A stretch of 64,000 nucleotides of DNA from a virus. The stretch is from positions 15,570 to 79,569 of the IMG/VR virus record IMGVR_UViG_3300009085_000003. One strand, given 5' to 3'. The notes beneath the pieces were generated by a model that worked only from the letters and a program-made list of their open reading frames with translations, ran no database searches and was not told the DNA's origin. Within the stretch, counting starts at the first letter, position 1; each line of letters starts with the position of its first letter. Shown here piece by piece: positions 11,987-38,472 of the stretch. The position numbers and the translations under genes are program-made.

Positions 11987-12694
11987 CTAGTGATACTTAT
12001 TATCAATCGACTTGATGAACTCCACTATTGTGTCTGGTGTGTCATCCCGGTTGAACTCGACTCGCACAAAACGCGGGTCGTCCGGGGTCTCGCGTACCGC
12101 TTTCAGCTCCTCCATGCGTATCTCCAAGCTATTCGCTAAATCCCAGATTGCCAATTGGTTGTGTTGCTGCGCCAGCTTGATGGCTTTTTCGTAGTTGTGC
12201 TCAACCACGGAGACGTCAAGAAAGAACTTGCGGCTCTCCTTATCGTACCACCCGCCGATATGGGTCTGGTTGTTCTTTTTCAGCAAATCTTGATGCTTGT
12301 CGATAAAGTTGGCGACATCGTTCGGATTCGGACTCGTGGCATCGATGATAGTTTCGTAGTCTTTAAAGATTGACAGGGCATAGCCATCAGCTGGGCTACT
12401 GGCACTGCGTGGCTCAAACGTGAACCCGCCCTCAGTCAGCATCCGGTCGGTCAGGAACTTACCCATCTCAACTTTTTCCTCTGGAGCAAAATACCGCTCC
12501 TCTTGAACCTGTCGAGGCGCATCAGCACCCATGGATTCCGACTCGGCTTTACCAGAACCATCACCCTCGCCACTACCACCAATTTTGCCCGGACGCCCAG
12601 CGTGCCCAAAATTACCGGAGCCCTTGCCTCCTTTGGTAGTGACAAAAACAGACAGGATGTTTTCAATCGCAGTGAAATCATTTGGCTCGGTCAT
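11987..12694 (-). CDS. Tagged putative virion cargo protein (tag plus unknown domain)
   Basis: KGGKGSGNFGHAGRPGKIGGS at aa 21-41, then GGFT..GYALS..GGWYD..FLDVS..LAQQHNQLAIWD. Confidence 0.6.
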   Translation of the reverse strand: MTEPNDFTAIENILSVFVTTKGGKGSGNFGHAGRPGKIGGSGEGDGSGKAESESMGADAPRQVQEERYFAPEEKVEMGKFLTDRMLTEGGFTFEPRSASSPADGYALSIFKDYETIIDATSPNPNDVANFIDKHQDLLKKNNQTHIGGWYDKESRKFFLDVSVVEHNYEKAIKLAQQHNQLAIWDLANSLEIRMEELKAVRETPDDPRFVRVEFNRDDTPDTIVEFIKSIDNKYH

Positions 12695-13956: not shown

Positions 13957-13960
13957 ATTA

Positions 13961-14284: not shown

Positions 14285-17161
14285 CTAGCCCCTTTTCTTG
14301 CTGCCAAGGAAACCATCCAAGAACGGTTTATCCGCCACTGGCGTCTCATTCACGGTGGAGACGCGGGGCTTCACAGACTCCGAACGCGCTTGCGCCTCGG
14401 CATGTAGCTCATCCTGCGACGCGGCTTTTTCGGGGTTGCGGGTCTTGGTTGCCTGAGTATTCACTGGCGGGTTGGCTCGCGCACCAATCACACGAAAGAC
14501 GCGCAACTTCTCCATGTCCGCCACATCGGTGGCAAGGACGTCGAGATAGCGACCCGACTGACTGGCGCCAGCACGATAAGTGTGCCCATTGACTTTGAAC
14601 GTCATGTTGCCTTGGGCGCTGCCAATATATTCCATGCGCACCTTGGCGGGCTCAATATTGACATTTTCAATCCGCTTGACGTTAATAGGCTGACCACCAC
14701 CACCAACACGTGGTGCTTGCTGAGATGCAATCACACGCTTGGCGGCAATAATTTGTTTTCCTGCTTTACTACCACAACCACTACAAGCCATCATCTTGTT
14801 TACTCCTTTATAGTAACCAGAATATTGTTTTGAAAGTCTCCCAAGAATCTCTTTGCCTCGAGTAGAGAGCTCTCCCTGCTTGGTCAGGGTTAACATGCGC
14901 CTGTGACCGGTATCAATGCGATAAATCATCAGGGGTTCTGGAACGTGCTGCCCACAGATACCATTGACCGCGCATCTCACAAAATATTCCCAGTCCTCCC
15001 AAGACTCATAGGTCTCGTCAAACTTCATGCGCTGAGCGCACTCCGTATACATGAGGACTGTGACAGCGTGCTGCAACTTCCAGTCCATTCTATTATAACT
15101 CTTTAAGCGTTCGATTGAGTCACCGGACTTTTGCCGCAGGATATAGTCTGAGTACACATATGAGATTTCATCGTCGCTGCGTGCCAGAGCGCCCAGTAAC
15201 ACATCCAGTGCGTTATTGGTTAGCATATCATCACAATCTAAAAACATGAGGGTCGGTGCTATGGCGGCATCGATACCGAGATTCCGTGCAATCCCAGCCC
15301 CATGCTTTCCCATGTTCGGCACCACGCGGGCGAACGGGTACGGAGACATAATGTCGCCGGTGATTTCACTCTTGTCGTCCTCAATCGTATCATCTACGAT
15401 TATCAATTCCCACTCACGGCACGACTGGGCAACGACGCTCTCAATGACCTCTGGCAGATACCGGGCATGTCCCTTGCCTACCGGGACAACGACACTGACC
15501 AGCGGAAATAGATATGAGTAGATAGCATCAGGGCGGCGCAACAGGGGGGCGCCCATAGGGTATACCCTGTCCCTCATCCATGGCAAATCCTCATCGATAG
15601 TACGGTAAGGCTTCGTGACGTGGGCACCAGCATCATGTAGGCGGTATCGAAACAGCGGGGTTGTCGATACCCGGCGAGCGGTGAAACCAACCGACAGCCC
15701 ACGTGTCCAGAATTCCGCATCCTCTCCGGGTGCAAACTTTTGCTTATGCCAACCAGCTCGGCGCCACATCTCCTTGCGGAACATGGCTGCGCTCGGTATG
15801 CAGTTGGCGGGCGGGTTGGTGAGGCTGCTCTGTATATCCCAGCTGAATTCCGGCGGAAACTGGGATGACCCCAAGGTTTTACCCTTGGCGTCTATCAGGG
15901 TCAAACCGGCATAGGCGATGCCCAAAGAACGGTCTTGCTCCATGGCGCCCGACAGCAAGCCCACATATCCGGCTGCCAGTTCATCGTCAGCGTCAAGACA
16001 TATTATCAATGGGTACCGAGCTGCTTGAATGCCAGTAGTGCGTGCCGCCGCCACGCCCTGATTCGCCTGTGTGATGATTTTGACCAGCGGGTTTGACCCA
16101 TAGCGCTCACGAATCAACTGGACACTGTTATCTTTTGACCCATCATCCACCACAATTATCTCGTCGGGCTTCTGGGTTTGTTTCAGTGCACTATCGATGG
16201 CGCCCATCACCCACTTGCTATAGTTGTAATTCGTGATAACCACGCTCACGCCATGGGTATCTTTTTCATTCTGGAGCTCATGGGCAATGCCCTCGTACAA
16301 CTTGGCGTATTGCGCCATGATATTCGACCAGTCGTACTGGGCTGCTTTTTCGCGTGCCCGGTCAGACATCTCAGCGCGGTGCGCCTGTATGTATTCGTAT
16401 CCAGCCGCCAGACCCTCGATATCTCCGGGGGCAACAAGGTAACCATCCACCTTGTGGGTCACGATATCAGCTGTGCCGCCCCAGTTGTACCCGAGAACTG
16501 GCACGCCACACATCATTGCCTCCAGTGTACCAACACCAAAGGTCTCAATGGTTGTTGCCAGATAGATGTTTGCTGAGCCAACCAGTACCATCATGTCAGC
16601 ATGACTCATGGTGCCCACTACCCGTAACTTGTCCAGTGCAGGCTTATTCGGTACCGCGAACGTAGATACAATGTCGATACCCTTGGCAGCCAGCTCCCAA
16701 GCCGGTGTAGGGTCACATACGTCACCGACCCGGTTCTTGTTCCAGAGAGCATAGTTCACCGGCTGGTCGTGTCTGGCATCTGTCAAGTCGATACCGTGTC
16801 CAATCACTACTGGGCTGATACGCATATCGCGTTTGAACGGCATCGCTACCCACTGGCTGGGAACGGTTATTTTCAATGCCTTACGGCTGCTGTCTACAAT
16901 CTCGTGGTTGACAGCACTGTGCCAGCTGACATAGGACATATGGGGGAGGTCGGCGAAATAGAGACCATGGCTGTGGAGAACGTCAACACGCTTCTCACCC
17001 CCACGCGCGGCAATATGCACAGCCACTACATCAGCGTTTTTCCAATCGTTCGTAATCTCTATCCCATATCGGGGCAGGTATTTATGCTGGGCATGAACCA
17101 CGCGTCCAATGCCATTGTCATCAGATGCATTATTAGGATTCAGGTTTAGGAATAGTTTCAC
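14285..17161 (-). CDS. Multi-domain glycosyltransferase (GT4 + GT2 + GT2 + CxxC-containing tail)
   Basis: ETFGVGTLEAMMCGVPV (GT4); VSVVITNYN..VVDDGS..LDADD and VSVVVPV..IVDD..LDCDD (two GT2). Confidence 0.9.
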   Translation of the reverse strand: MKLFLNLNPNNASDDNGIGRVVHAQHKYLPRYGIEITNDWKNADVVAVHIAARGGEKRVDVLHSHGLYFADLPHMSYVSWHSAVNHEIVDSSRKALKITVPSQWVAMPFKRDMRISPVVIGHGIDLTDARHDQPVNYALWNKNRVGDVCDPTPAWELAAKGIDIVSTFAVPNKPALDKLRVVGTMSHADMMVLVGSANIYLATTIETFGVGTLEAMMCGVPVLGYNWGGTADIVTHKVDGYLVAPGDIEGLAAGYEYIQAHRAEMSDRAREKAAQYDWSNIMAQYAKLYEGIAHELQNEKDTHGVSVVITNYNYSKWVMGAIDSALKQTQKPDEIIVVDDGSKDNSVQLIRERYGSNPLVKIITQANQGVAAARTTGIQAARYPLIICLDADDELAAGYVGLLSGAMEQDRSLGIAYAGLTLIDAKGKTLGSSQFPPEFSWDIQSSLTNPPANCIPSAAMFRKEMWRRAGWHKQKFAPGEDAEFWTRGLSVGFTARRVSTTPLFRYRLHDAGAHVTKPYRTIDEDLPWMRDRVYPMGAPLLRRPDAIYSYLFPLVSVVVPVGKGHARYLPEVIESVVAQSCREWELIIVDDTIEDDKSEITGDIMSPYPFARVVPNMGKHGAGIARNLGIDAAIAPTLMFLDCDDMLTNNALDVLLGALARSDDEISYVYSDYILRQKSGDSIERLKSYNRMDWKLQHAVTVLMYTECAQRMKFDETYESWEDWEYFVRCAVNGICGQHVPEPLMIYRIDTGHRRMLTLTKQGELSTRGKEILGRLSKQYSGYYKGVNKMMACSGCGSKAGKQIIAAKRVIASQQAPRVGGGGQPINVKRIENVNIEPAKVRMEYIGSAQGNMTFKVNGHTYRAGASQSGRYLDVLATDVADMEKLRVFRVIGARANPPVNTQATKTRNPEKAASQDELHAEAQARSESVKPRVSTVNETPVADKPFLDGFLGSKKRG

Positions 17162-17796: not shown

Positions 17797-17820
17797 TGTG
17801 TGCTCCTTAATTATTATCAA

Positions 17821-18552: not shown

Positions 18553-18634
18553 GTTATCTCTTGTCCCACTCGATTATAGTATATTATCAATCGAAAGGCA
18601 AGCAGGAAAATCGGGGAATCTGACCCGATTTAAC

Positions 18635-18663: not shown

Positions 18664-18686
18664 GTACTTAGATAAGGAGCTAAACG

Positions 18687-19147: not shown

Positions 19148-19164
19148 AGAGAGGATGGTAGACA

Positions 19165-19500: not shown

Positions 19501-19514
19501 TCTAGGAGGAACGT

Positions 19515-19801: not shown

Positions 19802-21259
19802 CTAGTTATTCTCTGGGACAGGCGAATAGTAGCTCGGGATAGTGGTATCGCCTGCGGTCTTACCGCCATTGACGAAGTAGCCACTATCGGTGAACGGTGA
19901 ACGTTCGTGTGCCAGAGGTGCGTATCCGACATTATCAATCCGTGCCGCCAGATACGGGGTGAGCAGCATGAGCCGGGGCTCGGTCTTGGCAAGCACCTGA
20001 ACACAGAAATTGTTCGGTGGCTTCTTGTGCCACATAAAGCGACCGCTATCTGTGGTGTAGAAGCTGCCATCCGGGGCGAACAGGTTCGCCATTGCCATGG
20101 CACCGTTCGGTGAGTCGTAGCTAAAGTATTCCATGTAGGTCACTGGCATACGACCGAGAACGGTCATGGGCAGGATAAAGACCCCAGCCGAGAACACGCC
20201 CGGAGCCACTTCGGTTTCGGGGATTGCATCGTCCAAAACCACCGGGACTTTCTGACCGTCGATGAGCAGGTACTGACCTGTATATTCATACAGGTTGCCA
20301 CGCATTTCATCGCGCATCCGTTCCACGTCAGCTGAGTTAAGTGACAGTTCCGCTGAATTCAGGGTCTGGCAGCGATAGCTCAGGTAAGTGCACGGGTAGC
20401 TCTCTGTGATTGCATAGAACAGAGAGAACGGCATGACGATTTTCCATGACACCGGGTCAAGCCCAGCGCGGGAGGCAAGCCATTTCAGGTTGCGCATGGT
20501 GCTGGTAATCAGGCGGATAAAGCCCTCAGCATCGTCCTCGATTTGAACGTCGTTATAGTCGTAGACAATGGAGTCAGCTGCCGGGCAAGCGACGCCAGTT
20601 TCAGCATCCTGATACCCAGTATTGACCAGAGTCTCCAGACCCCAGAATTCACGATACCCGCCGCCCGCCGTGTTATTGGTGGGTGTACCGGTGTAGAGAA
20701 TCCGGGCGAAGTCACGCGACCACGTGACACCGAGCTCAAACAGAGCCTTGGCAATTTCATTCTGAGCAGCTTTCGCAGCGTCAAAACCGATGATGCCGGG
20801 GGTCTGGGGATTATCGCCAGCGCCAGCAAACGGATTGCCGTAGATGTCAAAATCGGTGAATTCTCCCCGATTAGTGACACGTCCCGCGCGGTCTACGTCG
20901 TAGACCTTGGTCATGCGGGAGAACCGACCAAACACAAAGCTGTGGGTGCACAGCTTCATGACACCAGTCACGGGCGGGTCATCACAGACACCGGTCGGCT
21001 CATCGCCTGACGATGCGGTGACACCAGTGATGATGCCATACAACGGGTTGGTCTCATTCGCTGCTTTGACCGGAAGCTGAGCTTGCAGACCCAGCTTGGG
21101 CAGAACCATTGCTGAGAACAACGGCTTTGATAATCCGGGGCTTGAGAACAAGCCACCCATACCGTGTCCCATCGTTGCAGACGGGGTACTGGATGGAACG
21201 TCTTTCAGGCTCACGGTGGAGAGCAGCGATTTCGCTAGTTTTTCGTAATCAATGTCCAT
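19802..21259 (-). CDS. Major capsid protein
   Basis: 485 aa directly after the protease/scaffold gene; strong RBS; terminator downstream. Confidence 0.8.
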   Translation of the reverse strand: MDIDYEKLAKSLLSTVSLKDVPSSTPSATMGHGMGGLFSSPGLSKPLFSAMVLPKLGLQAQLPVKAANETNPLYGIITGVTASSGDEPTGVCDDPPVTGVMKLCTHSFVFGRFSRMTKVYDVDRAGRVTNRGEFTDFDIYGNPFAGAGDNPQTPGIIGFDAAKAAQNEIAKALFELGVTWSRDFARILYTGTPTNNTAGGGYREFWGLETLVNTGYQDAETGVACPAADSIVYDYNDVQIEDDAEGFIRLITSTMRNLKWLASRAGLDPVSWKIVMPFSLFYAITESYPCTYLSYRCQTLNSAELSLNSADVERMRDEMRGNLYEYTGQYLLIDGQKVPVVLDDAIPETEVAPGVFSAGVFILPMTVLGRMPVTYMEYFSYDSPNGAMAMANLFAPDGSFYTTDSGRFMWHKKPPNNFCVQVLAKTEPRLMLLTPYLAARIDNVGYAPLAHERSPFTDSGYFVNGGKTAGDTTIPSYYSPVPENN

Positions 21260-23348: not shown

Positions 23349-23391
23349 CTGTCTTTGACTCCACAATATTGTCAGTTTATGACAATGTAAT

Positions 23392-23723: not shown

Positions 23724-24115
23724 TTTTCACCTATAACTTTACTAAACTCACGTGCTTGGATACCGGGCAGGTTAATGTTCTTGTTTACAATGACGCCGCT
23801 GAATTTACCCTTGCGTGAGCGTATCTGTCCGGGAACGGTCTTGGCGACGAACGGCGGCAGCATCAAGGCGTGTCTTACCCGCGTGCCACGGTCGATATAT
23901 TTGAAGATATCCTGCGTGGTGAAGATGTCACGCACGTTTGGTTTCGTCGCTTCGATGACGAACAGGGGCTGGTTAATCCACGTTTGTGTGACCACCTTGT
24001 AATCGATACGCACATCCTCGGCAGCCTCGTCCAGTGCCCGACCGATACCCTTGAGGTACAAGCCGGGGTCTAGAAACGAGTTCGGTGGAACGTGAATTCG
24101 TGCCCCAAATCTCAT
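23654..24115 (-). CDS. Basic virion morphogenesis protein (HK97 gp10-like, putative)
   Basis: FKYIDRGTR..PGIQAREF motif resembling the YVEYGT..PG.F pattern. Confidence 0.45.
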   Translation of the reverse strand: MRFGARIHVPPNSFLDPGLYLKGIGRALDEAAEDVRIDYKVVTQTWINQPLFVIEATKPNVRDIFTTQDIFKYIDRGTRVRHALMLPPFVAKTVPGQIRSRKGKFSGVIVNKNINLPGIQAREFSKVIGEKWTKRLPKMIQKSMATVAKQESR

Positions 24116-26956: not shown

Positions 26957-29802
26957 GTGACTCCTACTATAAACGGATTATCATTCATTATAACAAACTC
27001 CAATTCGTTCAGACACCCAAAGCCAGTTAGGGCATTACAGAAAATTCGGCTGATGGGCACTCTGGCAGAGAACACGTAAGCTGAATTGCCGCTACTGTGA
27101 CCATCACCAAATGTATACGCAATACCAACCGAGGATGTCCATGCCTCCATCGCGTTGCCATGATATAGCGCCGTATCGTACTTGTCAATACCAGCCCTAC
27201 CCGCCTCAAAATTGATGTCTCCGATAGCTCTGGGTACCTCCAAATCGATAAAGCCTCGATAAAGCACAAGGGTGTCAGTCGGTTTGTATCCCATTTTGGC
27301 GAACCACGCCTGTGTTTGGCGATATATCGCTCGCAGCAACGCGCGTGCCTCGGCATTGGTCAATAGCATCATATGTTCGGAGCGGATGTCCATCTTCTCA
27401 TCCGATGTCGACAGCTCCCCCTTCGCCAAGGTGTCCGCAACGAATACCGTGAGACGAGCGAGGTTTCTCTGCTTCTCGTCAGGGAACACGTCCGCAAAAT
27501 TGCCCTCCAGCATATCATTGAGCGGAGACGGGTACAGGGCGGTGATATCGACACCGGTCTCGGCTGCGTATTGCTCTGCCAACACCGTAACTTTTTCATG
27601 TAAGGCACGGGCAATACTCCGAACGGAGTCCTCGGTTCCGATACTCCCCTTGTCACCATCCGGCACGTTGTATAGAAACCCGCGTATGATGCTACTTTCG
27701 GTTTCGTGGATGTAGGCGTAGTATTTTGATGTATCGGTAACTCCGGCTGCCGCCAGAGCTTCGTAAGCTACGGCTTGTAGTTCGTCATAATACTTGGTCA
27801 GAAAATCGCTCTTGGGTTGTACAGCGGCGTATTTCTGTTCTTGCCACTGCGACATATTAGCGCCAAACTCGTCCTTCATCGCCTTTTGCAGACCCAGCAT
27901 CATGGCATTATTATCATTCGAGCTGTGCGCCCAGCACTTAATAGCCGTACTCACTAGGGTCGGACTAATCCCAGTCTCTTGACTTAGGGTACTAATCACG
28001 TTCTTTTTAGCTTCCACACGCGCCACATTTAGTAGAGCCTCAACTTGCCCTTTATAGGTACCAGCTACAATCTGCCTAGAGAGCTCATCACGGTATTTGG
28101 TCGCCATGTCCACCATGTAGGCTGACTCGGGATGCTTGGTGTAATGTTGTAGAAATTCTGGCGTGAGGTATTTGTCCAACATGAGCATCTCACGCTCGAG
28201 GGCGATTCGGCTCCTGTCGTCCCGGTCGCCTTTCTGAGTTCTATCAAACGGGGTAATATCCGCAAAATACTCCCCACTGCTTTGGCTTCCGCCCACCGCT
28301 ACCGGTCGTGACGCCCCCTTTGGGGCGCTGCCGCCACGTTTGCCAAGGATGCCAACATGCCCATGGTGCCCAGAGCCAGTGCCACCTTTGAATGCAGCAA
28401 CCTTGCCTTGGAGAATCCCCATGATGAATGCAAACATATCCGGGTCTTGGCGTGCCAATCGCCATGGGCTGACCGCGAATATCTCAAAAGCGCAGGACAG
28501 CAACTCGGTGCTCCCGTTCTGGTAGGAGGTAGTCATATACTCGAACAAGGGCGGCTTGTTCCGAGCTTCCAGCCGGTCTCGGTATTCGTTCAGTAACGCC
28601 CGGTCGTCGTCGTATAGCAGATATTCAATAGCGTGACCATACTCATGCGCGACCGTTGCCTTGAGCTCATCGTCCATGGTATCCACATCGAGGTCAGTCT
28701 CTCGGTCGGTGTATGGATAATTTTCCCGTGTTGGTAAGAGCTCAGAGTACCCAGCCAGAGCCCGCAGCTCGGGAACCACCTCATAAGGAATGTTCATTTG
28801 CGTATTGGTATCATCGTAGTTAGCGCCACTATTAAACATACTGTACTTTAAGTTTACGCCAATCATGGGCTGGGTTTCGTCCACCACATCATAATTGACC
28901 AGCGAGTCGACTTCTGTAATCGCATCATATATTTTCTGGTCGATAGCATCTCGAATTTCCGGCGTCAGTTGCTTGAGCACCCTATCAGGATAATTATGCA
29001 TCACGTCCACGGTCTCATACTTGTTCAGATACTGGGTGGTGTCAACACCAAACATATCGACGAACTGGCGTTGCATCTTGTGTTGCAGGGCTTGAGACAC
29101 CTCTCGAGCCTTGGTATAGCGCTCCATGGCTGTCGATAGTTCATCGACCGCGTTCTGCATCACATCAGCTGCATGTTCGCCAAGGTACTTTTTTGCCTTG
29201 GCGTAAGAGTCTATAGCGACCACGCGTATCGGTTTCGATGGAATCTTGGCTGTGATATCAAATCCCGCATTACGCCACGCAGCGTTAGGCATATTATCAA
29301 GGTGTATATTTGGGTAGAACGCACCCTCAGCTCGAAACGCGATTGTCCAGTCCTCCGACACTTCATACTCGCCCAGCTCCAGCATATCCAGTACCTCGCC
29401 GTTACCAGCCCGCCACGCTGACATCACCGCGTCGAGCTGCTTGTGAGTCTCGGCATACGCTGCCGTGTACTGAGTCAGGTCTTTATCAATCGCTTTCATG
29501 TATGCGTCTAGATAGGTCTTGCCAATCGCCTTGGTCTGACGCAGTTTTGCCGTGAGTCCCTTTTGGTCGTAGTACCGATGCCGCACAGACGGGATATCGT
29601 ACGACGGGATATCACGCTTTCCCTGCCCCCGCTCCCCCTTGGGTAACGACCCGCCACGTATCCCCGGACGACCCGCATGTCCCCAGTTTCCGGAGCTGGC
29701 ACCACCTTTTACAGTGGCGCCAGTTCCCCATACAGCTGGGTCGATGATATCGATGTCAATCGATAACGGGATTCCGGGAACCGCGACGTTATTGTTTTTC
29801 AT
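26953..29802 (-). CDS. Two-module tagged protein: zincin metallopeptidase + R-S-E-type ADP-ribosyltransferase
   Basis: Two tags; HEYGH..ELLSCAFE; LYRGF..WTSS..ELEF. Confidence 0.75.
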   Translation of the reverse strand: MKNNNVAVPGIPLSIDIDIIDPAVWGTGATVKGGASSGNWGHAGRPGIRGGSLPKGERGQGKRDIPSYDIPSVRHRYYDQKGLTAKLRQTKAIGKTYLDAYMKAIDKDLTQYTAAYAETHKQLDAVMSAWRAGNGEVLDMLELGEYEVSEDWTIAFRAEGAFYPNIHLDNMPNAAWRNAGFDITAKIPSKPIRVVAIDSYAKAKKYLGEHAADVMQNAVDELSTAMERYTKAREVSQALQHKMQRQFVDMFGVDTTQYLNKYETVDVMHNYPDRVLKQLTPEIRDAIDQKIYDAITEVDSLVNYDVVDETQPMIGVNLKYSMFNSGANYDDTNTQMNIPYEVVPELRALAGYSELLPTRENYPYTDRETDLDVDTMDDELKATVAHEYGHAIEYLLYDDDRALLNEYRDRLEARNKPPLFEYMTTSYQNGSTELLSCAFEIFAVSPWRLARQDPDMFAFIMGILQGKVAAFKGGTGSGHHGHVGILGKRGGSAPKGASRPVAVGGSQSSGEYFADITPFDRTQKGDRDDRSRIALEREMLMLDKYLTPEFLQHYTKHPESAYMVDMATKYRDELSRQIVAGTYKGQVEALLNVARVEAKKNVISTLSQETGISPTLVSTAIKCWAHSSNDNNAMMLGLQKAMKDEFGANMSQWQEQKYAAVQPKSDFLTKYYDELQAVAYEALAAAGVTDTSKYYAYIHETESSIIRGFLYNVPDGDKGSIGTEDSVRSIARALHEKVTVLAEQYAAETGVDITALYPSPLNDMLEGNFADVFPDEKQRNLARLTVFVADTLAKGELSTSDEKMDIRSEHMMLLTNAEARALLRAIYRQTQAWFAKMGYKPTDTLVLYRGFIDLEVPRAIGDINFEAGRAGIDKYDTALYHGNAMEAWTSSVGIAYTFGDGHSSGNSAYVFSARVPISRIFCNALTGFGCLNELEFVIMNDNPFIVGVT

Positions 29803-30352
29803 ATGCAGCCAGATAATCTACAACCTCAAGTTGTTTGTGGGCAGTCATCATTTTGTCCACTACCAGTTTAACATCTTTCCAGACATCTTTACCGTAATCA
29901 TGGAACAGAATAATTCCACCCTTTTTGACCAGTGGAACCCAGTCTGTGATATCGCGGGTGATTTCGTGCTCCAGATGACCATCGTCAACCAGCAGCAGGT
30001 CGATGGGTTTATTATCCGCCCAGTGCTTGACCCGTGCCTCGTGCGCGTCCGCAAGAATCTGGACGGGATACGCCGGGAACCCATGCTCCAAAAATGCGTT
30101 CTGTTCATTCACCAAGCCGTGCCCTGTAGCCATTAAGGTATTATCAATCGTGTACAGGGTCGGCAGCAGGTCTGGGCGTACATCAGCCACCGCCATGGCA
30201 GTGGTTCCCACGCCCGCGCCAATATTGACCACCGTGGCATTCTCCGGGGCAAGCTGGGCATACTTCGCCAGTAGACCCACCTCGTTAACCGTCAGGTAGC
30301 CGAACGACCGAGCCAGATGCTCCGCACGTGTTGCTTTCAGTAACTCGCTCAT
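29789..30352 (-). CDS. Class I SAM-dependent methyltransferase (Methyltransf_24-like)
   Basis: VNIGAGVG..IDLLLVDDGH..GGIILFHDY. Confidence 0.85.
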   Translation of the reverse strand: MSELLKATRAEHLARSFGYLTVNEVGLLAKYAQLAPENATVVNIGAGVGTTAMAVADVRPDLLPTLYTIDNTLMATGHGLVNEQNAFLEHGFPAYPVQILADAHEARVKHWADNKPIDLLLVDDGHLEHEITRDITDWVPLVKKGGIILFHDYGKDVWKDVKLVVDKMMTAHKQLEVVDYLAAYEKQ

Positions 30353-33300
30353 AATCCTAGTAACCTCCTAATAGCAACCTCTAGGTCGCTACTGTTTAAA
30401 TTATAGTCGAAATCAAATATATCGTTAGCAGCAATGATTTCGACATTCTCACCACCAAAGATACGGAACTCACCCATGGAGCTCATCTGGTAACCCTTGG
30501 CTTTGCCCAGCTTCCCCATTTTTGGTTTCAGAACAAGTGTCTTAAACTGTTTCGGGTCAAGTTTGGCGAGCGCTTTCCAGTTGGTGCCAAAGAATACCGG
30601 GTTGCTCATGCCGCCCGCACCTTCACGCGCATATAGGTAGGCGTGTGACCACAGATACCACAGAGCCTCGCGGTACGCCTCCTCGGTCATCAGGGTTCCA
30701 TCCCACTTTTTGACCTCCTCGCCACGTTCATAAGCCATAAGTCTGTCCAGACTCTTTTCGCTATCGAACTCCCGGAATCGGTCGCTCCAATCTTCCCGGA
30801 TACCCTCACTGCCGTTCTGGGCACCCTCAAACATCTGGGTAGCAGTCAACATACCATTTGCGACTAACCACGCCTCCTGTAGAGACTGCTCGACTTCTTT
30901 GGCAGTCTTAAGGTCATTGGTCAGGGAGATGGTCTTATCATCACCGCCCGCAAGACCGACTTCGCTATCGTGCCCATGCATCTCGTAGCGGGAGCGGAGC
31001 TGGTCACCGATGACAGCTGCGGCATCGGTCGTGACGTGATATAGCTCATCCGGCAATTCCATCCATTTGCCTTGGTTACTGACATAAAACGCTGTCAGCG
31101 CCTCAACATCGGACGGGGTCAAGCGAGCAGCGGTGACCGCATGATTGACATCGAACTCGAACTTTTCACGCAGCTCCCCAGCCACTCCGCCATATTCTAT
31201 GATATCGTAGTACCCTTTGTATTCTTTGCTATCCTCGCCATACTTGGCTTTAAGTTGCTCCTCGTACCCCTGCAAAATATAGTCTGTCTCCGAGCGACTA
31301 AACTCGGTCATGTCAGGAGCGCCTGCCAGTAACTCTCGGGCTAATTTTCTACCGTAACGACCACGCTCCGCACTGGCATCGCTTCCATCTTGTATCAAGA
31401 GCGACTTGTCAGTCATCCGTGTAGATAAATCCTCTGCGTTTTCAGGCAGCCCAAGCTGTTCGCGCACGCGACGTATGCGATTATCAAACTCGGCTTGATG
31501 GTGCTCCAATACTTTGGTTACCTGAGCTGTAGTAACATAATTGCAGTTCGTAAACACTTCCATCCCGAGGTCTACAGTTGCTGGGTCATCACTGTCCCGC
31601 AAAGCACGCCAGTGGTCATATGTCAGACCAAGCGTGCTAAGCGCAATATCAAAATCGTCAGCACCCAGTCCAACAGTGCCATTATTATCCGTGGCTTCCA
31701 GTTTGTTTTTGAGGAGCAGGTATGGTCTGGATATTGTCATCTGCGGAGTCTCCAGTATCTCCGCACTCACATCCGGGTCTCCATACCCACGCCTGACGCT
31801 ACGAGAACTGAAATAGAATTTGTCGGCTAGGTCAATCATGACATCTGGGTTAGGAATGATGCCATTGTTAGCGATGATGGCTTTCGCCTCTTGCACCAGA
31901 GCTTGCCGCTGGGCACGAGCTTGTTCGACCTCAGCATCCTCGATACCGTATGACACCACCGGTCGCGCGGCTCCCTTGGGCGCTGAACCGCCCCGGCGTC
32001 CCAAGACGCCCACGTGTCCACGGTGACCAGAACCAGCCCCGCCTTTCAGCTTCGCCTCTTTGTTCACGCCAACGTAGTCCCACTCTTGGAGCGGGTGGGT
32101 ACGCCAGCCACCATCGTCGCTGATGTATATAGCAATGTCCGACGGATTCAACTGTCGTTCAAATAAGGCGCTTAGAATGTCAGGAAAGTGTTTATCCAGC
32201 TTTTTCAATAACCGGTCGATATCATCATCACCGTATCGATGCAGAGATACAATTGGCTTCCCTTTCACATACCCAAACAGCCCACGGAAACTTATGTTAT
32301 CCTGATTTAATTTGTCATTACCACCATAACGACCTGTCTCTCGCATGAGGATATCGTCATGTATCTCGTCTTTTTTCCCGGCGAACGCAAGCCCATCCTC
32401 GGTAACCAAGAATGGTCGAACGTCAGCCATGCCCTCTGTTTTATTGGTTCGTATCATGGCGTAGCCGGGTATCTCGTCCTCAGCCCGGAGTCGAGAGGCA
32501 ACATCGATATCAGTAATGCCCATCGTCACGAGCCCACCGCGTCCTGAGCCACCCACCTTACCGGGACGTCCACGATGACCAAAATTACCAGAGCCCTCTC
32601 CGCCCTTGAGTACCACATTTCCGTGAATAATCCCCAAAATGAATGAGAACAGGTACGGGTCTTGCCGCGCCAGTTTCCATGGGGCGGTAGCGAAAATCTC
32701 AAAAGCACAGGACAGGATTTCGGTCTCCCCGCTCGAGTATTCCCTGTTCATGTAGTCAAAGAACATATGAGACGTGTTCTTGTTCGTTCGGTAGTCCCTC
32801 AGGGCTTGGCGGGTCTTGGCTGGCAACCGTGCCTCTACGTGATGACCCAACTCATGCCACAACTCCGCTCGGGCAGCCTCTTGCATGGCGTCCACATCCA
32901 GTTCGGTATGGCGCTGTACATACGGATAATTGTTCGGGTCGTTAGCAAGGAACTCCCCGCTATCCCATGTGTACAAAGTCGCCTCGCCGCTTATCTGCTG
33001 TAAATCCGCAGTGTACGCGCCCCGATTCGGGTAGGTAACAAAGAGCACTTCGTTATCGACAGCTTTCGGGTCGTAGACACTTTTATCAATCATCTGGTTG
33101 GCACGCCACAGCTCCTGCCGGATAAACTCCTCGGCATCAGGGGCGTACCGTATATCGCCAATATTCCAACCGATAGGACGCGGCGCCAAAGCGATAGACG
33201 TCCTGAATTTCTCCGCCTTGTCTCCGGCACTCAGCACACTGGTATAACAGTCCATGACCATCTGGCGCTGCATGTCGTTGACCTCACCCTTGCGCTTGAT

Positions 33301-36300
33301 AACCTCTTGAACAAATTCATTGTGTCGATTTAGATACGTCTCAAAGTGCTCCGCCGCCTGCGGATACTCTTTCTGAATGTCGCGCAAGCTCATCTCTCGC
33401 TCGAGCGTATTGTTGAACGGGGACGGCGAGATTCGTCGCTCAGTAATTGTAAAAACTCTATCATCGATGCCTATCGGTCGAATGCGACTTGTCCCATAAA
33501 GATGGGACTCGATTCCAGCAACCGCGGTACTGGTCTGTTCGTTGAACATCGCCTCGCGCGTATCCGGGGATGACAGGGTAGACCTATCGTTTTCCATCCA
33601 CACCATCTGGTTACGAACCCAGACGAGATAGTCATCGCGCAACTTCTCATACTGTTCTACCTGCGGTTTGACCCGGTTCATGTACTCGAGCACGGCAGAG
33701 GCGCCCGCCCGCATCAACGACTTAACGTCATGTTCGTATACAACTGGATGACCGCTCACATCTTTTTCCGGTGGGAATTTCAGGAACGGATTATCAAGAT
33801 TAATAGCGGGGGTGGAACGCTCACCTTTAGGTAACGAACCTCCACGCTTGCCCGGTCTGCCAGCGTGACCGATATTGCCGGAGCCCGTACCACCCTTAGT
33901 AGTAACATTCGGGTCATAGCCAAATGTAAACGAGTCAAGCTCCGTGAGCCAATCAAAGTGCCGAAAGTATGGCTTGTTGGCAACGATGACCACGCGCAAT
34001 GGCTTGCCCGTTAAATCACAATACTTTTTCAGGGCGCCCATGAATCGAGACCCTAGGTTGTTAAGGTTGTCTGGTTTTTTAAAGATGGTTCCCAAATATA
34101 GGTATGAGCCATCGTCCTGTATTCCAACCGACAACTGGGTATTATCATTATCGGTGAAGTACAGCGACTCGACCGGATTGCCGTAGATGTCGTTCCACCG
34201 CTCGTCACCATTACCATAGCGCATCGTAACATCCCCGCCCATTTCGCGCTCAAAGAATATCTTCACCGGGTTGTCTGGCGTGTTTAATAGTTGCCGACCA
34301 GTGATACTGCGACTCCACAGCTCGCGCCGGGGCATATCTGTGCCGTCAGCAACTTCACGTAGCTTATTAACAGCATCGTTATAACCCGCTTCGGAGCCGC
34401 CCTCCCCAGACCCACCCACCTGTCCGGGGCGTCCCCGGTGACCAAAGTTACCAGAACCCTGTCCGCCTTTCAGCACCGTAGTTCCCTGAATGATGCTGAG
34501 GATAAAGCCGAACATCTCTGGGTCTTGTTGGGCAAGACGCCATGGGGCAGTAGAGAATATCTCGAACGCGCAGGACAGGAGCTCGGTGGCACCAGTGCGG
34601 TACCGTGTTTGCATGTAGTCGAACATGAAAGGATTCTTACCATCGGCTACATCCACGCGAAAGAGATAGAAATTATCAATAGCATGACGGTATGGTACGG
34701 TTAGAGTGTGTTCCACATGATGACCAAACTCGTGCCAGATTTCCAGCCGCAGGTATTCTTGCAGTGTGTCGACATCCACATCGTAGTCTCGCGGTATGAA
34801 TGGATAAATGCCACCTATGCCAGCACCGGGGAATTCTGGGGGTTCAGCCGCATAGGCGCTCTCGCGCTGGTCGTATGTCACCAGCTTGCGGTCTAAGGTG
34901 ATGGTCGGTATATCCAACTCCCGGTTGTCCGCAGGGTTGGCATACGAACCGGTCATAAGGGAGGTGTCAATATAGAGCTTGTCACCATACAAGCTGCGGT
35001 TGCCCTCATGCAGAATGTTGACATTCACTACGCCTGCCGCATCGTCTACGACGCTACGAATATAATCAATGGCGTCCGGTGAAATAGATAGGGGCTTACC
35101 GGTGATGTCTACTCCTCCCGTATTCATGTCCAGCGCGACCTCCCATGGTCTTGGGTTGGACGCCTTAAGAGATTTAATGAACTGGTTCGCTAACTCGGTC
35201 TGGACTTTGTTGGCTGCCTCGCGCTTTTCAATATAGCCGTTCGCAAAGGCATTGTAATCGTTGAACCACTTATCCAGTCCGCCAGCAGTGAGGGCTTCTG
35301 GATATTTTTCCTTGAGGTCGTTGTAGCTGAAAACCTGCTGGTATTTGTGACCGGATTCGTGGGTATTTGGGTCATCAGCCGACGGTACCCATGGCTGGAT
35401 AAGCAGGAACGGCTCATCCGGGCTCAGGGGACGCACCTCCATGCGCGAGTCGTAGGTATTATCAAAGCGCTGCTGCCCGATACGAATCGACGGGTTCCGC
35501 ACATCGACATGGGCAAGACCGTAATCATCAGGGGATAGGTGCCGAAACGTGTCATGGAGCACATTGCTAGAATCGGCTGACGGCAGACTTTGCAGGAACT
35601 CATGTGTTATCGCCTTAAAGTCAGCCTGTGCCTCAGTGACGAACGTCTCCCGCAGCTTTTTGTACTCATCCAGCTGGGGCTCGATGGATTTCAGGTATAC
35701 AGCTGCCGCATCCTTGTTCGCGTCGATGAGTGCCTGAACATGGCTTGGGTATTGCGGTGCCGGGAATGTTTTGTCGCCCACGCGCAGGACACCACGCGGC
35801 TGCTTCTTGGGCTTGTCTACTGGAACCCCACGAACGCCCTTGGGCAAGCTGCCACCGCGTTTTCCGGGTCGTCCTGCATGACCAACGTTCCCAGAGCCTG
35901 TGCCGCCCTTGGTGGTAGTCTCTTTCAGGGAGATGTTCCCATCGGAATCGATAAACACGTGCTTGGCAGACAAAAACTCGCTCAGGTCATATTCGAGCGA
36001 TACACTGGAGTACCCATGACCGAGATGCTCAGAGTACGTCTGCCAGCGCACAGTGTCGTTGTCCGCCAGCTCCATATCCCAGACGCCAGCATCGTACATG
36101 CGTTGCAGCTGGCGGAGGATTTTGGAGTTGACGTTCTGGGTGGTGATATATAAAGACTTGCCACGGAAATTACCAACCAACAGGCGGAAGTTCACGAACG
36201 GTATCGCGCTGTTCTCGTCCATGACCAACATGCCATACGTCTCCTGCATGGCGTGGCGGAACATGCCCACGGTCTCAGAGAGCTTCACCGGCATCGTTGT

Positions 36301-38472
36301 CATGGGCTGATTCTCGAGCTGGTGTTTCAGGTAGATAGCGTTGTACTTATTAACTATCCGTTCGAGTTCTTTTTCAATCTCGTGGTCATCATCAAACACA
36401 CCCTCATCGACCTCGCGGGTCAGCTTGTGCATCTCTTTGTCCAAGTCGACATATTCCTGTAGCCACGCAATCGCTGGGTCATCGTTAGACTCCAGTATTT
36501 TCTTGGCGCTCCTAGCAACACCGATGATGGGGCGCAACGCATCGAACACAAAGACGGCTTTTTCACCAACCCGTCCGGGGTCAGCTTCCATCTCCTTGAC
36601 GATATCGGGGAATAATCCCGGATTTTCGTACACAATTCCACCCACCAGCTGCTCGTGACTAAAATGCCCTTCGCCACGAACGCCAATCACGCCAATCCCC
36701 TCGATATAGGTGGCGGCTGCCGTGGTGAAGTCATCAACATCGTCTCCCTCGAGCTCAGCCTTAATCGCTTCGTTCACGCTGTCGAATGGACGGTAGCCAC
36801 TCGGGAGCTTGACAGTGTTCCAGTCTATTGTCGGGGGACTATCGATGCCGTAGGTAATTGACTCGCCCGCAGGGGCACGGGGGACAGGAGCAGCGCCTTT
36901 CGGGGCAGAACCACCGCGCTTTCCCGGCACACCTACGTGACCATGGTGCCCACTGCCAGCACCGCCCTTGGTGGTTACCTCGGGCATCAGATAATACAGC
37001 TTGTAAAAATACTTATAGCCATCCGGTGATGGGGATTCCTTAAATTCATCGAGAACCCACTGAGCGTCATGATTGAGACGCAACGTAAACATGCCATCTA
37101 TCCACGAAGGCGGGATAGCCTGCTCCATGCGATAGCACCCTTGAGTCTCAAAGTCAACGTCAGCTTGCGCGTCTGTAAAGATGTCAGATAATTTTTCAAT
37201 CGGAACCCGGATACGCACCCACACAGGCTGGGTTTTCGCAGCAAACTCCTCCGGTGGAAACAAGTCAGTTGGTACGTTGTGTTGTACATAGCTGGCTAGG
37301 TCGGTCATCGTTTCTATGTCATCGACAAAATAGGTCGATGGCGGTCTGCCATAATGGACACGACCGGGCAGAATGCCGTACTGCTTGAGACTGTCCGCCA
37401 AACCAGCTGGAGTCCCATGGTAGAGGTCAACGTATCCGATACCCTTTGCGATAAGCTCCTGCTCCAGAGCGTCCAGTTTCGCAGCGATATCTGGGTCGTA
37501 GTTCGTAAAGTCTCCCTGCGCATGATACGGTGTCGCATACGGGTCTTTACTCGGGTCTGTTTTCATCGGTTCTAGGTCACGCTCCCAGCCATGGAGACCG
37601 GTGTAAGCCGGGTCTGTGCGACGCGGGTTGTGCATGTCAATGACTTCCGACGCCGGAGCGACCCTGCCACCGAACCGACTCCCGCCACGCTTTCCGGGAA
37701 TACCAGCATGACCCGCCTCGCGCGTGAATCCACTGCCCTTCCCGCCTTTGAGTGAAATCGGGGAAACTTCCCTCCCCGCTATGCGATGCAACGGCAGGTG
37801 AACTTGCTTCGTCCGGTACGGTAAGATGAGTTCCCAGTTCCGTATCTGGAGCGGGTTCCATGCACGATGACGCTCGACGCAGGTCTGGCAGTGCTCAGCG
37901 ACCCCGAGCTCCCAGTATGCATCAGCGTTACCGTCCTCGATATCACCGATGACCTCGATACGCCACCGGCATTTGCAGTTTTTCAAACATTGGCTGGTAC
38001 CATCCCCCGGATAGGCTGGCAGGGGCATGTCATCCACGCCCAGCTTGGCAGAGGTGTTGGCACGCCAGTATTGCTCTACCGCAGTGCGGTTGTACTGACG
38101 AGCACGCCCGAACCAGCGGCTGTCGAAATTGGTATCATCGAATTTGTTCCCGAGTTGGTTGGCTGCGATTACCAATGCAAAGCCAGACAAGAACGCCAGC
38201 TGCTGGGCAATCGCTTGTGTCAGGTAGTCGCTTGCTTTTGGGGGAATGACCTCAGAGCCAGCGCCGACCATGTAGCCGGTGGTGGCTCCCAAACCGATGA
38301 GCTCACCCATCAGCTGCTCCCAAGCCTCGACGGTTATCTCACCGTTAAATAGCTCGTAGAGCAGGGCGTCGGTCTGTTCATCCATGCCCATAATAACGGG
38401 AATCAGCTCGGGGGGCAGACCGTCGTAGCGTTCCCACAGCTCGGGCTCACCAAGCGGGGTGTAGTCTGGCAT
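30349..38472 (-). CDS. MuF-like minor head polyprotein with 7 tagged cargo modules
   Basis: Directly after portal; N-terminal PGDG..CLKNCKC..HCQTC head-morphogenesis motif; 7 tag copies; ART, HExxH and GNAT-like motifs. Confidence 0.8.
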   Translation of the reverse strand: MPDYTPLGEPELWERYDGLPPELIPVIMGMDEQTDALLYELFNGEITVEAWEQLMGELIGLGATTGYMVGAGSEVIPPKASDYLTQAIAQQLAFLSGFALVIAANQLGNKFDDTNFDSRWFGRARQYNRTAVEQYWRANTSAKLGVDDMPLPAYPGDGTSQCLKNCKCRWRIEVIGDIEDGNADAYWELGVAEHCQTCVERHRAWNPLQIRNWELILPYRTKQVHLPLHRIAGREVSPISLKGGKGSGFTREAGHAGIPGKRGGSRFGGRVAPASEVIDMHNPRRTDPAYTGLHGWERDLEPMKTDPSKDPYATPYHAQGDFTNYDPDIAAKLDALEQELIAKGIGYVDLYHGTPAGLADSLKQYGILPGRVHYGRPPSTYFVDDIETMTDLASYVQHNVPTDLFPPEEFAAKTQPVWVRIRVPIEKLSDIFTDAQADVDFETQGCYRMEQAIPPSWIDGMFTLRLNHDAQWVLDEFKESPSPDGYKYFYKLYYLMPEVTTKGGAGSGHHGHVGVPGKRGGSAPKGAAPVPRAPAGESITYGIDSPPTIDWNTVKLPSGYRPFDSVNEAIKAELEGDDVDDFTTAAATYIEGIGVIGVRGEGHFSHEQLVGGIVYENPGLFPDIVKEMEADPGRVGEKAVFVFDALRPIIGVARSAKKILESNDDPAIAWLQEYVDLDKEMHKLTREVDEGVFDDDHEIEKELERIVNKYNAIYLKHQLENQPMTTMPVKLSETVGMFRHAMQETYGMLVMDENSAIPFVNFRLLVGNFRGKSLYITTQNVNSKILRQLQRMYDAGVWDMELADNDTVRWQTYSEHLGHGYSSVSLEYDLSEFLSAKHVFIDSDGNISLKETTTKGGTGSGNVGHAGRPGKRGGSLPKGVRGVPVDKPKKQPRGVLRVGDKTFPAPQYPSHVQALIDANKDAAAVYLKSIEPQLDEYKKLRETFVTEAQADFKAITHEFLQSLPSADSSNVLHDTFRHLSPDDYGLAHVDVRNPSIRIGQQRFDNTYDSRMEVRPLSPDEPFLLIQPWVPSADDPNTHESGHKYQQVFSYNDLKEKYPEALTAGGLDKWFNDYNAFANGYIEKREAANKVQTELANQFIKSLKASNPRPWEVALDMNTGGVDITGKPLSISPDAIDYIRSVVDDAAGVVNVNILHEGNRSLYGDKLYIDTSLMTGSYANPADNRELDIPTITLDRKLVTYDQRESAYAAEPPEFPGAGIGGIYPFIPRDYDVDVDTLQEYLRLEIWHEFGHHVEHTLTVPYRHAIDNFYLFRVDVADGKNPFMFDYMQTRYRTGATELLSCAFEIFSTAPWRLAQQDPEMFGFILSIIQGTTVLKGGQGSGNFGHRGRPGQVGGSGEGGSEAGYNDAVNKLREVADGTDMPRRELWSRSITGRQLLNTPDNPVKIFFEREMGGDVTMRYGNGDERWNDIYGNPVESLYFTDNDNTQLSVGIQDDGSYLYLGTIFKKPDNLNNLGSRFMGALKKYCDLTGKPLRVVIVANKPYFRHFDWLTELDSFTFGYDPNVTTKGGTGSGNIGHAGRPGKRGGSLPKGERSTPAINLDNPFLKFPPEKDVSGHPVVYEHDVKSLMRAGASAVLEYMNRVKPQVEQYEKLRDDYLVWVRNQMVWMENDRSTLSSPDTREAMFNEQTSTAVAGIESHLYGTSRIRPIGIDDRVFTITERRISPSPFNNTLEREMSLRDIQKEYPQAAEHFETYLNRHNEFVQEVIKRKGEVNDMQRQMVMDCYTSVLSAGDKAEKFRTSIALAPRPIGWNIGDIRYAPDAEEFIRQELWRANQMIDKSVYDPKAVDNEVLFVTYPNRGAYTADLQQISGEATLYTWDSGEFLANDPNNYPYVQRHTELDVDAMQEAARAELWHELGHHVEARLPAKTRQALRDYRTNKNTSHMFFDYMNREYSSGETEILSCAFEIFATAPWKLARQDPYLFSFILGIIHGNVVLKGGEGSGNFGHRGRPGKVGGSGRGGLVTMGITDIDVASRLRAEDEIPGYAMIRTNKTEGMADVRPFLVTEDGLAFAGKKDEIHDDILMRETGRYGGNDKLNQDNISFRGLFGYVKGKPIVSLHRYGDDDIDRLLKKLDKHFPDILSALFERQLNPSDIAIYISDDGGWRTHPLQEWDYVGVNKEAKLKGGAGSGHRGHVGVLGRRGGSAPKGAARPVVSYGIEDAEVEQARAQRQALVQEAKAIIANNGIIPNPDVMIDLADKFYFSSRSVRRGYGDPDVSAEILETPQMTISRPYLLLKNKLEATDNNGTVGLGADDFDIALSTLGLTYDHWRALRDSDDPATVDLGMEVFTNCNYVTTAQVTKVLEHHQAEFDNRIRRVREQLGLPENAEDLSTRMTDKSLLIQDGSDASAERGRYGRKLARELLAGAPDMTEFSRSETDYILQGYEEQLKAKYGEDSKEYKGYYDIIEYGGVAGELREKFEFDVNHAVTAARLTPSDVEALTAFYVSNQGKWMELPDELYHVTTDAAAVIGDQLRSRYEMHGHDSEVGLAGGDDKTISLTNDLKTAKEVEQSLQEAWLVANGMLTATQMFEGAQNGSEGIREDWSDRFREFDSEKSLDRLMAYERGEEVKKWDGTLMTEEAYREALWYLWSHAYLYAREGAGGMSNPVFFGTNWKALAKLDPKQFKTLVLKPKMGKLGKAKGYQMSSMGEFRIFGGENVEIIAANDIFDFDYNLNSSDLEVAIRRLLGL

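Follow-up and report, generated by a model that had tools for sequence, protein, structure and literature searches.

A conserved peptide tag in phage head-module cargo genes and the lineage-specific residue that precedes it

A peptide repeated in one phage and spread over many

Why does one peptide recur twelve times in five genes of a single phage, each time directly after a lysine? The question is raised by a DNA stretch of 64,000 nucleotides ("the window"; positions are counted from its first letter), which makes up the right-hand part of a complete virus record in IMG/VR (IMGVR_UViG_3300009085_000003), 79,569 bp in length and bearing direct terminal repeats. The peptide, hereafter the tag, comprises 21 residues with the consensus K-GG-x-GSG-[NH]-x-GH-x-G-x-x-G-x-x-GGS and is present in exactly 12 copies in five minus-strand genes, which encode proteins of 2707, 949, 393, 550 and 235 amino acids (aa). 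A sequence-only reading of the window had taken it for a portable address label, exposed by cleavage after Lys, that serves to deliver effectors together with the phage DNA. New in the data described here is that the residue at the junction with the tag is constant within a genome, differs between genomes and tracks the family of the prohead protease. As to the mechanism, the balance of probability tips slightly towards a scheme in which the prohead protease would cut after Lys, so as to free about 12 modules, each with the tag still at its N-terminus.

All copies, split 7, 2, 1, 1 and 1 over the five proteins in the order given above, were found exactly where the sequence-only reading had placed them, and the Lys that it saw before every copy is there in 12 of 12 cases. 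A hidden Markov model (HMM) of the tag, run against all frames of the window, gave 12 matches at 35.6–47.2 bits. Since the next-best stretch scored just 4.6 bits, there are no degenerate tags in structural or early genes, as had been claimed, and the rest of the 79.6-kb genome yielded no additional ones, so that 12 is the genome total. Shuffled sequence produced 0.04 core matches per window, and this control together with the gap in HMM scores rules out chance or a low-complexity artefact. Recent duplication or gene conversion was also ruled out, because the mean pairwise nucleotide identity among the 12 tags is 0.64 and their codons have diverged: identical residues share a codon in just 34% of comparisons between copies, and both TCN and AGY codons are used at the two conserved Ser positions. 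Since codons are randomised at conserved residues, selection acts on the tag peptide.

About 14 positions of the tag are near-invariant (GG, GSG, N/H-F, GH, GRPG and GGS) and are set in a G-x-x periodicity, while conservation reaches background beyond P5 upstream and at about P26' downstream of the junction. Arg of the GRPG core is replaced by I or V in five of the 12 window tags; among about 890 non-redundant tags R and P of this core are each kept in 88%, and the preceding residue is Ala in 51%, Glu in 12% and Ser in 11%. A canonical AT-hook, with its R-G-R-P core and basic flanks, was considered and rejected, since Arg is in the minority before G-R-P.

The tag is by no means confined to this phage. 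A scan of IMG/VR with the tag alignment retrieved 72 loci with 311 tags in 191 open reading frames (ORFs), at most 6 per ORF and 14 per locus. An exhaustive profile search, the one that the sequence-only reading had proposed, covered 1.84 billion protein cluster representatives and matched 4,978 of them at E<=1e-3, individual proteins holding as many as 10 copies; the figure is a minimum, because single-tag proteins mostly miss the threshold. Tagged proteins do carry effector domains, and the preceding residue, once tabulated, proved to vary by lineage. In a scan of one genome per prokaryotic species the tag was registered in prophage-like regions of Clostridia and in contigs binned to methanogens, Omnitrophota, Dehalococcoidia and Sulfuricaulis. 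Pfam domains in 53 tagged proteins include ADPrib_exo_Tox (9), ART-PolyVal (3) and XkdF-type protease (2), as well as NUDIX, Mu F, GNAT, ATLF, PARP, topoisomerase IB, zeta toxin, LigT, Tpt1 and RadC. This set is the repertoire of phage polyvalent proteins.

Gene neighbourhoods, surveyed for 78 and 98 ORFs of other loci, are those of head modules. The nearest upstream neighbours of tagged clusters (n=78) comprise about 29 large terminases, 21 portals and 6 Mu F proteins, and the downstream ones comprise MuF-type minor head proteins and head-maturation proteases; thus the tag is a widespread mark of head-module cargo genes. Its wide spread, its head-gene neighbours and its codon divergence together uphold the earlier idea of a portable element of such genes, maintained at the protein level. 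Portal fusions occur in Clostridia prophages, where tag and cargo form a C-terminal extension of the portal protein. The ORFs of loci L085-L109 (for instance L092:5133-8102 of Clostridiales bacterium CCNA10, AP018533.1) start as a portal and have their tags always after Asp; with tags and a cargo module at the portal C-terminus, the cargo is hung on the portal itself. Spacing between tags in other loci has a minimum of 72–116 aa and a median of about 220 aa, and a leader is always present before the tag. Single-linkage clustering, which was not resolving, found no non-cargo family universal to the tag-bearing loci, these being partial. Tblastn of the 235-aa protein and of a cargo stretch from a Clostridia prophage against 50,697 cultured-phage records gave no tag match, with the reservation that the low-complexity filter may mask the tag.

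The tag appears to have no published description: a full-text search for tag strings found no paper, and no reporting model of it is present in Pfam, PHROGs or NCBIfam. The paper on polyvalent proteins (PMC5512222) contains neither "glycine" nor "linker" and no junction motif, and that on MuF toxins (Jamet et al. 2017, PMC5576092) is silent on linkers, motifs and cleavage.

The junction residue and the prohead protease

The residue directly before the tag may be K, L, R, D, A, N or E, as seen over about 890 non-redundant copies. Lys as the general junction residue therefore had to be abandoned, its place being taken by D, L, A, R, E or N in other lineages. The choice is uniform in 115 of 146 multi-tag proteins, and agreement at this position amounts to 0.89 within a unit (genome or protein) versus 0.27 between units, which corresponds to an excess of 0.85. 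At other variable tag positions the within-unit excess is 0.13–0.45, and at P7' it is 0.68. The larger value for the junction residue shows that this is not a general homogenisation of tag copies, and in the window Lys is retained across three diverged tag subtypes.

Residues further upstream depend on the type of the junction. E-type sites have L or I at P3 in 71% of cases ([L/I]-x-E), A-type sites have R at P3 in 91% with L, P or M at P4 and T, A or V at P2, L-type sites have R or K at P3 in 71%, and R-type sites read [L/I]-[V/I/T]-E-R. Processing by gp21 of phage T4 obeys an L/I-x-E logic, is governed by residues 8 and 10 of the capsid-targeting sequence (CTS), and its "LIE-9" fits the logo (PMC9026906).

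For the classification of proteases, family models and a profile of the window protease were applied to viral records, and local iterative HMMs to all 101 loci. Pfam S77 and S78_2 had no match in 50 viral records, a negative that says nothing for S77, whose control was silent as well. Lys precedes the tag in nine of nine loci with an HK97-type S78 protease and in every member of the window's own protease family (4 loci, two more records and the window genome). In the Pa193-gp24-like family the close subgroup has Asp in 27 of 27 loci, while the distant subgroup (13 loci) has L, A, N, H or a mixture and never K, so that K is found in 0 of the 40 loci of both subgroups. Exceptions to the match between junction residue and protease class numbered 0 in 53 loci, and no locus contained two classes; the Fisher test of K versus non-K by class gave p 1e-12, a value uncorrected for relatedness. 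The HK97 capsid protein is cut at K103/S104 (PMC10275583), which provides a precedent for a site made of Lys and a small residue in HK97-like proteases.

A separate observation concerns the "head maturation protease" of D- and L/A-type loci (phrog_530 / phrog_12864; L060:15369-16172 and 39 other loci), which is homologous to gp24 of Pseudomonas phage Pa193. The homologous part is the N-terminal 230 aa of gp24 (PDB 9b40_G, 1.2e-13). The PDB deposition names gp24 a putative scaffolding protein; a helix-turn-helix at its C-terminus remains beneath the capsid vertices, and in view of the homology Pbunavirus gp24 may be a protease-scaffold fusion.

In the window itself the candidate for the enzyme that cuts before the tags is an untagged protein of 687 aa (21303–23366, minus strand), encoded just upstream of the putative capsid gene. 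It is composed of a small N-terminal domain (aa 13–47), a middle region, an acidic PE-rich linker and a helical C-terminus, and its prohead serine protease domain (from aa ~295 to aa ~440 or 460; window 21987–22484, minus strand) was assigned by fold and conserved residues. His63 (in "RWWH") and Ser107 (in "S-x-G-F") are invariant in 29 homologs and, judging by this family pattern, would be the catalytic residues. For the AlphaFold2 (AF2) model of the domain (pLDDT, predicted local distance difference test, 78) the top Foldseek matches are exclusively T4 gp21 (probability 1.0, TM, template modelling score, 0.51) and herpesvirus assemblins, with E-values of ~4e-3, so that both the assemblin/HK97 gp4/T4 gp21 fold and a conserved His/Ser pair were found. 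The curated models PF04586 and PF14550 have no match in the genome, phmmer with the 687-aa protein against PDB sequences found none, and of the more than 200 close homologs of the domain (55–65% identity) not one has a Pfam domain there. We read the protein as a probable protease-scaffold fusion from an uncatalogued branch of prohead serine proteases. The cleavage after Lys proposed by the sequence-only reading is thus supported indirectly, by a P1 residue fixed in each lineage, by P2–P4 motifs, by the tracking of protease families and by the presence of a probable prohead protease in the window, and is deprived of the generality of Lys.

Locus L012, a relative of the window phage, has in common with it the probable portal, the putative capsid protein (8e-78) and two small proteins. 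Its homolog of the protease-scaffold protein owes a length of 1,578 aa to five tagged modules that separate the small N-terminal domain from the protease; this placement of cargo within the protease-scaffold polypeptide, as well as the portal fusions of Clostridia, counts in favour of processing by the prohead protease. The small N-terminal domain, K-x-G-x-K-W-x-V-...-G-x-H-...-A-x-A-Q, occupies aa 13–47 in the window protein and aa 13–46 in L012:8408-13141, and matches phrog_3684. The first L012 tag comes directly after it, and the domain may therefore act there as a carrier or leader. Only one of 120 homologs in the protease family is tagged. Many of them are fused upstream to 2'-5' RNA ligase/LigT (PF13563, PF02834), PF23855 or PF10469, and fusions to such variable domains mean that the protease-scaffold protein itself carries variable cargo even without tags.

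Cleavage, docking and other readings of the tag

In the scheme that we favour each tag would be the N-terminal header of a cargo module carried in the phage head and would be preceded by a short site for the phage's own prohead protease, which in this lineage would read x-x-x-Lys/Gly-Gly (the slash marks the proposed cut). The five tagged proteins would be built into the procapsid, the 2707-aa protein by means of its N-terminal carrier domain beside the portal, and the serine protease domain of the 687-aa protein would then cut after each Lys. These cuts would remove leaders of 20–49 aa and split the polyproteins, giving about 12 modules of 190–565 aa, each of which would begin with GG-x-GSG... 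and retain the tag. The modules, three zincin-like peptidases and a probable ADP-ribosyltransferase (ART) among them, would be ejected with the DNA.

Several parts of this scheme have precedents. Phage-type polyvalent proteins (Iyer, Burroughs, Anand, de Souza, Aravind 2017, PMC5512222) are giant, multi-module and encoded beside virion genes; they carry ART, zincin (MPTase), GNAT and NUDIX domains and were proposed to be packaged, injected and possibly processed. The tagged polyproteins resemble them in size, modularity and gene position, but the processing proposed there is by MPTase, whereas here the junction residue varies with the family of the prohead serine protease, and the tag also heads small stand-alone proteins. 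The capsid-targeting propeptides of T4 (on IPI-III and on the injected ART Alt) are removed by the prohead protease gp21 (PMC9026906). As proposed for the tagged proteins, a short N-terminal propeptide is cut from head cargo, and E-type tags share the L/I-x-E P3/P1 signature. Unlike the tag system, however, T4 conserves a propeptide of ~10 aa that lies upstream of the cut and is discarded, whereas the 20 conserved residues of the tag lie downstream and would be retained; in addition, the tag system extends to polyproteins and to several protease families. The four leaders of the window (20–49 aa) are unlike each other, with upstream conservation limited to P1–P4, so no shared propeptide of the T4 type was found. 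In giant phages (SPN3US gp245, phiKZ gp175) many head-internal and ejected proteins lose N-terminal propeptides of 20–254 aa to the prohead protease (PMC10052503), at a short motif as proposed here, but those proteins have no shared tag after the cut site and no polyprotein strings. MuF toxins (PMC5576092), like SPP1 gp7 and Mu F (PF04233), are encoded directly after the portal and combine an N-terminal carrier with variable effectors, and some tagged proteins of other phages do carry PF04233. They differ from the window system, in which up to 7 modules are joined per protein and PF04233 has no match. The MuF-toxin pattern is one C-terminal toxin beside an immunity gene in a temperate phage; the seven-module architecture departs from it, and no immunity gene was identified, although none was looked for.

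The main competitor of cleavage supposes that the tag stays uncut and acts as an address label or docking peptide, binding to the interior of the procapsid (shell, scaffold, portal or DNA). Polyproteins would then stay intact as beads on a string, and the preceding residue would be a part of some lineage-specific contact. We consider this doubtful. It would account well for the ~14 tag positions that are universal across phages with unrelated portals and proteases, for the strong peptide-level selection and for the tag on stand-alone proteins, where a linker is unneeded, and unprocessed transfer is known for N4 virion RNA polymerase and for some plasmid polyvalent proteins (PMC5512222). It leaves unexplained, however, why the upstream conservation is confined to P1–P4 and specific to protease families, the T4-type L/I-x-E included, and why there is a leader ahead of every tag. 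Besides, no single non-cargo family is common to all tag-bearing loci, and a folded chain of 2707 aa would have to traverse the portal and the tail.

Cutting at the tags might alternatively be done by the zincin (MPTase-like) module of the polyvalent proteins themselves, in the head or after injection, as in the autoprocessing hypothesis put forward for polyvalent proteins by Iyer et al. (PMC5512222). HExxH is kept in the three zincin paralogs of the window, each of which ends ~8 residues before the next tag, and their look-alikes in a protein atlas are M90/ATLF, DUF4344, LPD1 and DdrB clusters. Nevertheless, phmmer did not find this zincin family in other tag-bearing loci, just 2 out of 53 tagged proteins have ATLF-type domains, the junction residue goes with the prohead-protease family instead, and the E-type site fits the logo of a serine prohead protease, all of which makes self-processing decidedly unlikely. 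That the tag is mainly an evolutionary junction promoting cassette shuffling by recombination, with little protein function, comparable to the demarcation motifs of polymorphic toxins, is hardly credible: the modules downstream of it are indeed very diverse and recombine between phages, the module of the 550-aa protein recurs in other architectures, and both fused and split forms occur, but the tags, with 64% nucleotide identity, randomised codons and two Ser codon families, offer little homology for recombination, so that the conserved entity is the peptide, and His, Ser and aromatic positions invariant over ~890 non-redundant tags speak for a role at the protein level.

Cleavage by the prohead protease has its own difficulties, and the following points weigh against it. 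K- and D-type sites, the former being those of the window phage, show weak preferences at P2–P4, and PHROGs applied to candidate protease ORFs of E- and R-type loci identified no protease. The link between junction and protease may stem from common descent of entire head modules, and since only about four protease groups are involved, independent transitions are few. Ascertainment is biased, as loci were retrieved with tag-derived patterns and the HMM was built from K-type copies. Encapsidation and ejection of the tagged proteins are what we infer from gene position and precedents, while cleavage itself is supported indirectly, and in the window the portal, the capsid protein and the carrier domain were assigned by synteny and weak matches. 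Finally, the P' side of the tag is conserved far beyond the needs of a protease site. Since the conserved part would be retained and the discarded part is variable, cleavage cannot be the whole purpose of the tag. Candidates for a further, universal role of the retained peptide are docking inside the shell, DNA binding and a flexible N-terminus for exit through the portal. A universal cargo-handling peptide whose Gly-rich N-terminus, with its His and Arg residues, docks the freed module to packaged DNA or to the inner face of the HK97-fold shell is a possibility that we raise tentatively.

Encapsulin cargo-loading peptides offer a parallel: short, conserved, usually C-terminal and placed beside Gly-rich linkers, they send unrelated enzymes inside a shell of the HK97 fold. 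Their sequence is different from that of the tag, and they have no association with a protease site.

Tagged modules, head genes and implications

The largest tagged protein (2707 aa; 30349–38472, minus strand, as are all features listed below) is a putative polyvalent protein with a 241-aa N-terminal carrier domain and seven tag-headed modules, which by tag positions span aa 242–501, 502–854, 855–1334, 1335–1525, 1526–1955, 1956–2142 and 2143–2707. Its first tag (37678–37749; aa 242–265) has a 3-aa insertion, the junction SPISL-K/GG and the lowest score, 35.6 bits. The second (36907–36969; aa 502–522) follows EVTT-K/GG and the third (35848–35910; aa 855–875), which heads zincin-like module 3, follows ETTT-K/GG. 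Tag 4 (34408–34470; aa 1335–1355) has the junction TTVL-K/GG, tag 5 (33835–33897; aa 1526–1546), at the head of zincin-like module 5, has NVTT-K/GG, tag 6 (32545–32607; aa 1956–1976) has NVVL-K/GG and tag 7 (31984–32046; aa 2143–2163) has EAKL-K/GG.

In the 949-aa protein (26953–29802) a 31-aa leader is followed by tag 8 (29647–29709; aa 32–52; 47.2 bits) with a zincin-like module (aa 32–471, HEYGH) and then by tag 9 (28327–28389; aa 472–492) with an ART-like module (aa 472–949). The 393-aa protein (25775–26956) has a 49-aa leader, tag 10 (26747–26809; aa 50–70) and a module without functional match; its leader ends in RELSPISEK, which is similar to REVSPISLK at junction 1 of the 2707-aa protein. 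The 550-aa protein (24112–25764) consists of a 40-aa leader, tag 11 (25582–25644; aa 41–61) and a module that is also present in tagged proteins of loci L058, L050, L061 and L063. An orphan tagged protein of 235 aa (11987–12694), encoded among neck/tail genes, has a 20-aa leader and tag 12 (12572–12634; aa 21–41), and its module matches phrog_17808 and tagged proteins of L041, L039 and L059. Leaders of 31, 49, 40 and 20 aa in these four genes agree with the 20–49 aa reported earlier.

All-against-all comparison revealed three paralogs, namely the third and fifth modules of the 2707-aa protein and the first of the 949-aa protein, which align from the tag to just short of the next tag, while in the remaining window modules the tag is the sole common part. 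The statement that each tag sits at the start of a domain is thus borne out as far as it is testable, by the tag-to-tag alignment of the three paralogs, the other modules sharing the tag alone. HExxH is intact in all three (HEFGHHVEH, HELGHHVEA, HEYGHAIEY), and their atlas look-alikes are clusters of M90/ATLF, DUF4344, LPD1 and "DdrB domain" (the query being the module of the 949-aa protein, which stood in for module 3 of the 2707-aa protein). At the level of motifs the assignment as zincin-like peptidases is supported. For aa 500–949 of the 949-aa protein, features and model structure gave DraT / ADPrib_exo_Tox look-alikes, so an ADP-ribosyltransferase in this C-terminal module is a lead only. 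Of the effector domains named by the sequence-only reading, zincin was therefore retained on the strength of HExxH and the atlas look-alikes, ART was left as a lead, and GNAT was not seen. Pfam searches of whole tagged proteins and of tag-delimited segments gave no ART, zincin, GNAT or Mu F and no match at E<=0.01; PHROGs on tag-delimited segments matched families of unknown function only, NCBIfam on 9 tagged proteins gave no match, and a word-indexed homolog search with the tag region of the 393-aa protein matched just that protein. At least two unrelated effector-type domains, a feature of polyvalent proteins, are joined both in the 2707-aa protein, where only two of the 7 modules are paralogous, and in the 949-aa protein with its zincin-like and ART-like modules.

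Also in line with polyvalent proteins, the tagged genes lie among late/virion genes and near a probable portal, in the order probable portal, tagged genes, protease-scaffold, putative capsid protein. The probable portal protein (561 aa; 38472–40157), whose gene lies immediately upstream of that for the 2707-aa protein, is represented by homologs in L012, L023 and L033. Two of these weakly match portal phrog_2662 (E 7e-4 and 0.0095), and in L012 the homolog comes straight after the large terminase; there was no direct match of the 561-aa protein in Pfam or PHROGs and none by phmmer against PDB sequences. A terminase was not found in the genome using PF03237 or the large terminase of L012. The 485-aa putative major capsid protein (19802–21259), named so by its position directly after the protease-scaffold gene, is conserved in the same position in L012 (8e-78), L033 and L009, and has no match in Pfam, PHROGs or, by phmmer, PDB sequences.

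The 241-aa N-terminal domain of the 2707-aa protein (37750–38472) was judged a candidate MuF-like anchor from gene position, a Cys-rich signature and weak fold matches. None of its 18 homologs has a Pfam domain, and the signature is PGDGTTxCxTxCKCRW...HCxTC. Its AF2 model (pLDDT 82) has weak matches in BFVD (E 0.06–0.9), enriched in names of the "head morphogenesis / minor capsid" kind, and Foldseek against PDB returned generic helical bundles only. At E<=10, PF04233 (Phage_Mu_F) matches neither the 2707-aa protein nor any other part of the genome. The MuF carrier suggested by the sequence-only reading thus finds no backing in PF04233 and weak backing in gene position, the Cys-rich motif and the fold matches, which leaves a MuF-like nature of the domain plausible but unproven.

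Some neighbouring features were observed in addition. Within the structural module a 958-aa protein (14285–17161) has two or three glycosyltransferase-like regions (PHROG: GtrB-like, beta-1,4-glycosyltransferase); so large a protein of this kind is unusual between head and tail genes and may glycosylate components of the virion or of the host surface. Between the 2707- and 949-aa genes lies that of an untagged 187-aa protein (29789–30352) with a match to the C-terminal part of a DNA methyltransferase PHROG (4.5e-12), and upstream of the probable portal a 194-aa ORF (41237–41821) is a clear DNA methyltransferase of fragment size (phrog_67, 7e-48). Adjoining the 235-aa tagged gene is that of a 512-aa protein (10327–11865) with BNR/Asp-box and Sortilin-Vps10-like repeats below Pfam thresholds, which suggests a beta-propeller (sialidase-like) tail or receptor-binding protein. 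The 9-mer ATTATCAAT is reported to be strand-biased and over-represented throughout the window, and a tRNA-like element to lie upstream of the window. A sequencing-run search matched the phage DNA in freshwater sediment metagenomes from 2017, one of them possibly the source sample, and listed no RNA runs holding phage sequence.

To our knowledge, the selection, loading, processing and delivery of protein cargo by phages are understood in few models, namely the T4 CTS, P1 Dar and the ejection proteins of giant phages. The tag provides a sequence handle by which candidate modules of capsid cargo can be picked out of uncultured phages in their thousands; these modules, many of them without an assigned function, are likely to be anti-defence or host-takeover enzymes. 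Covariation of the junction with the protease amounts to a testable processing rule, by which genomes alone could reveal the cleavage specificity of uncharacterised prohead proteases, and the by-products of the analysis are an uncatalogued prohead-protease family (>200 members, no Pfam model) and the 241-aa carrier domain. Should the retained tag prove to be an address label, it could serve in practice to load phage heads with foreign proteins. If it is the universal cargo-handling peptide raised above, any protein placed behind a protease site and the tag would be loaded and co-ejected, in bacterial and probably in archaeal viruses, and the two elements would constitute a general, transferable cargo-loading code for phage capsids.

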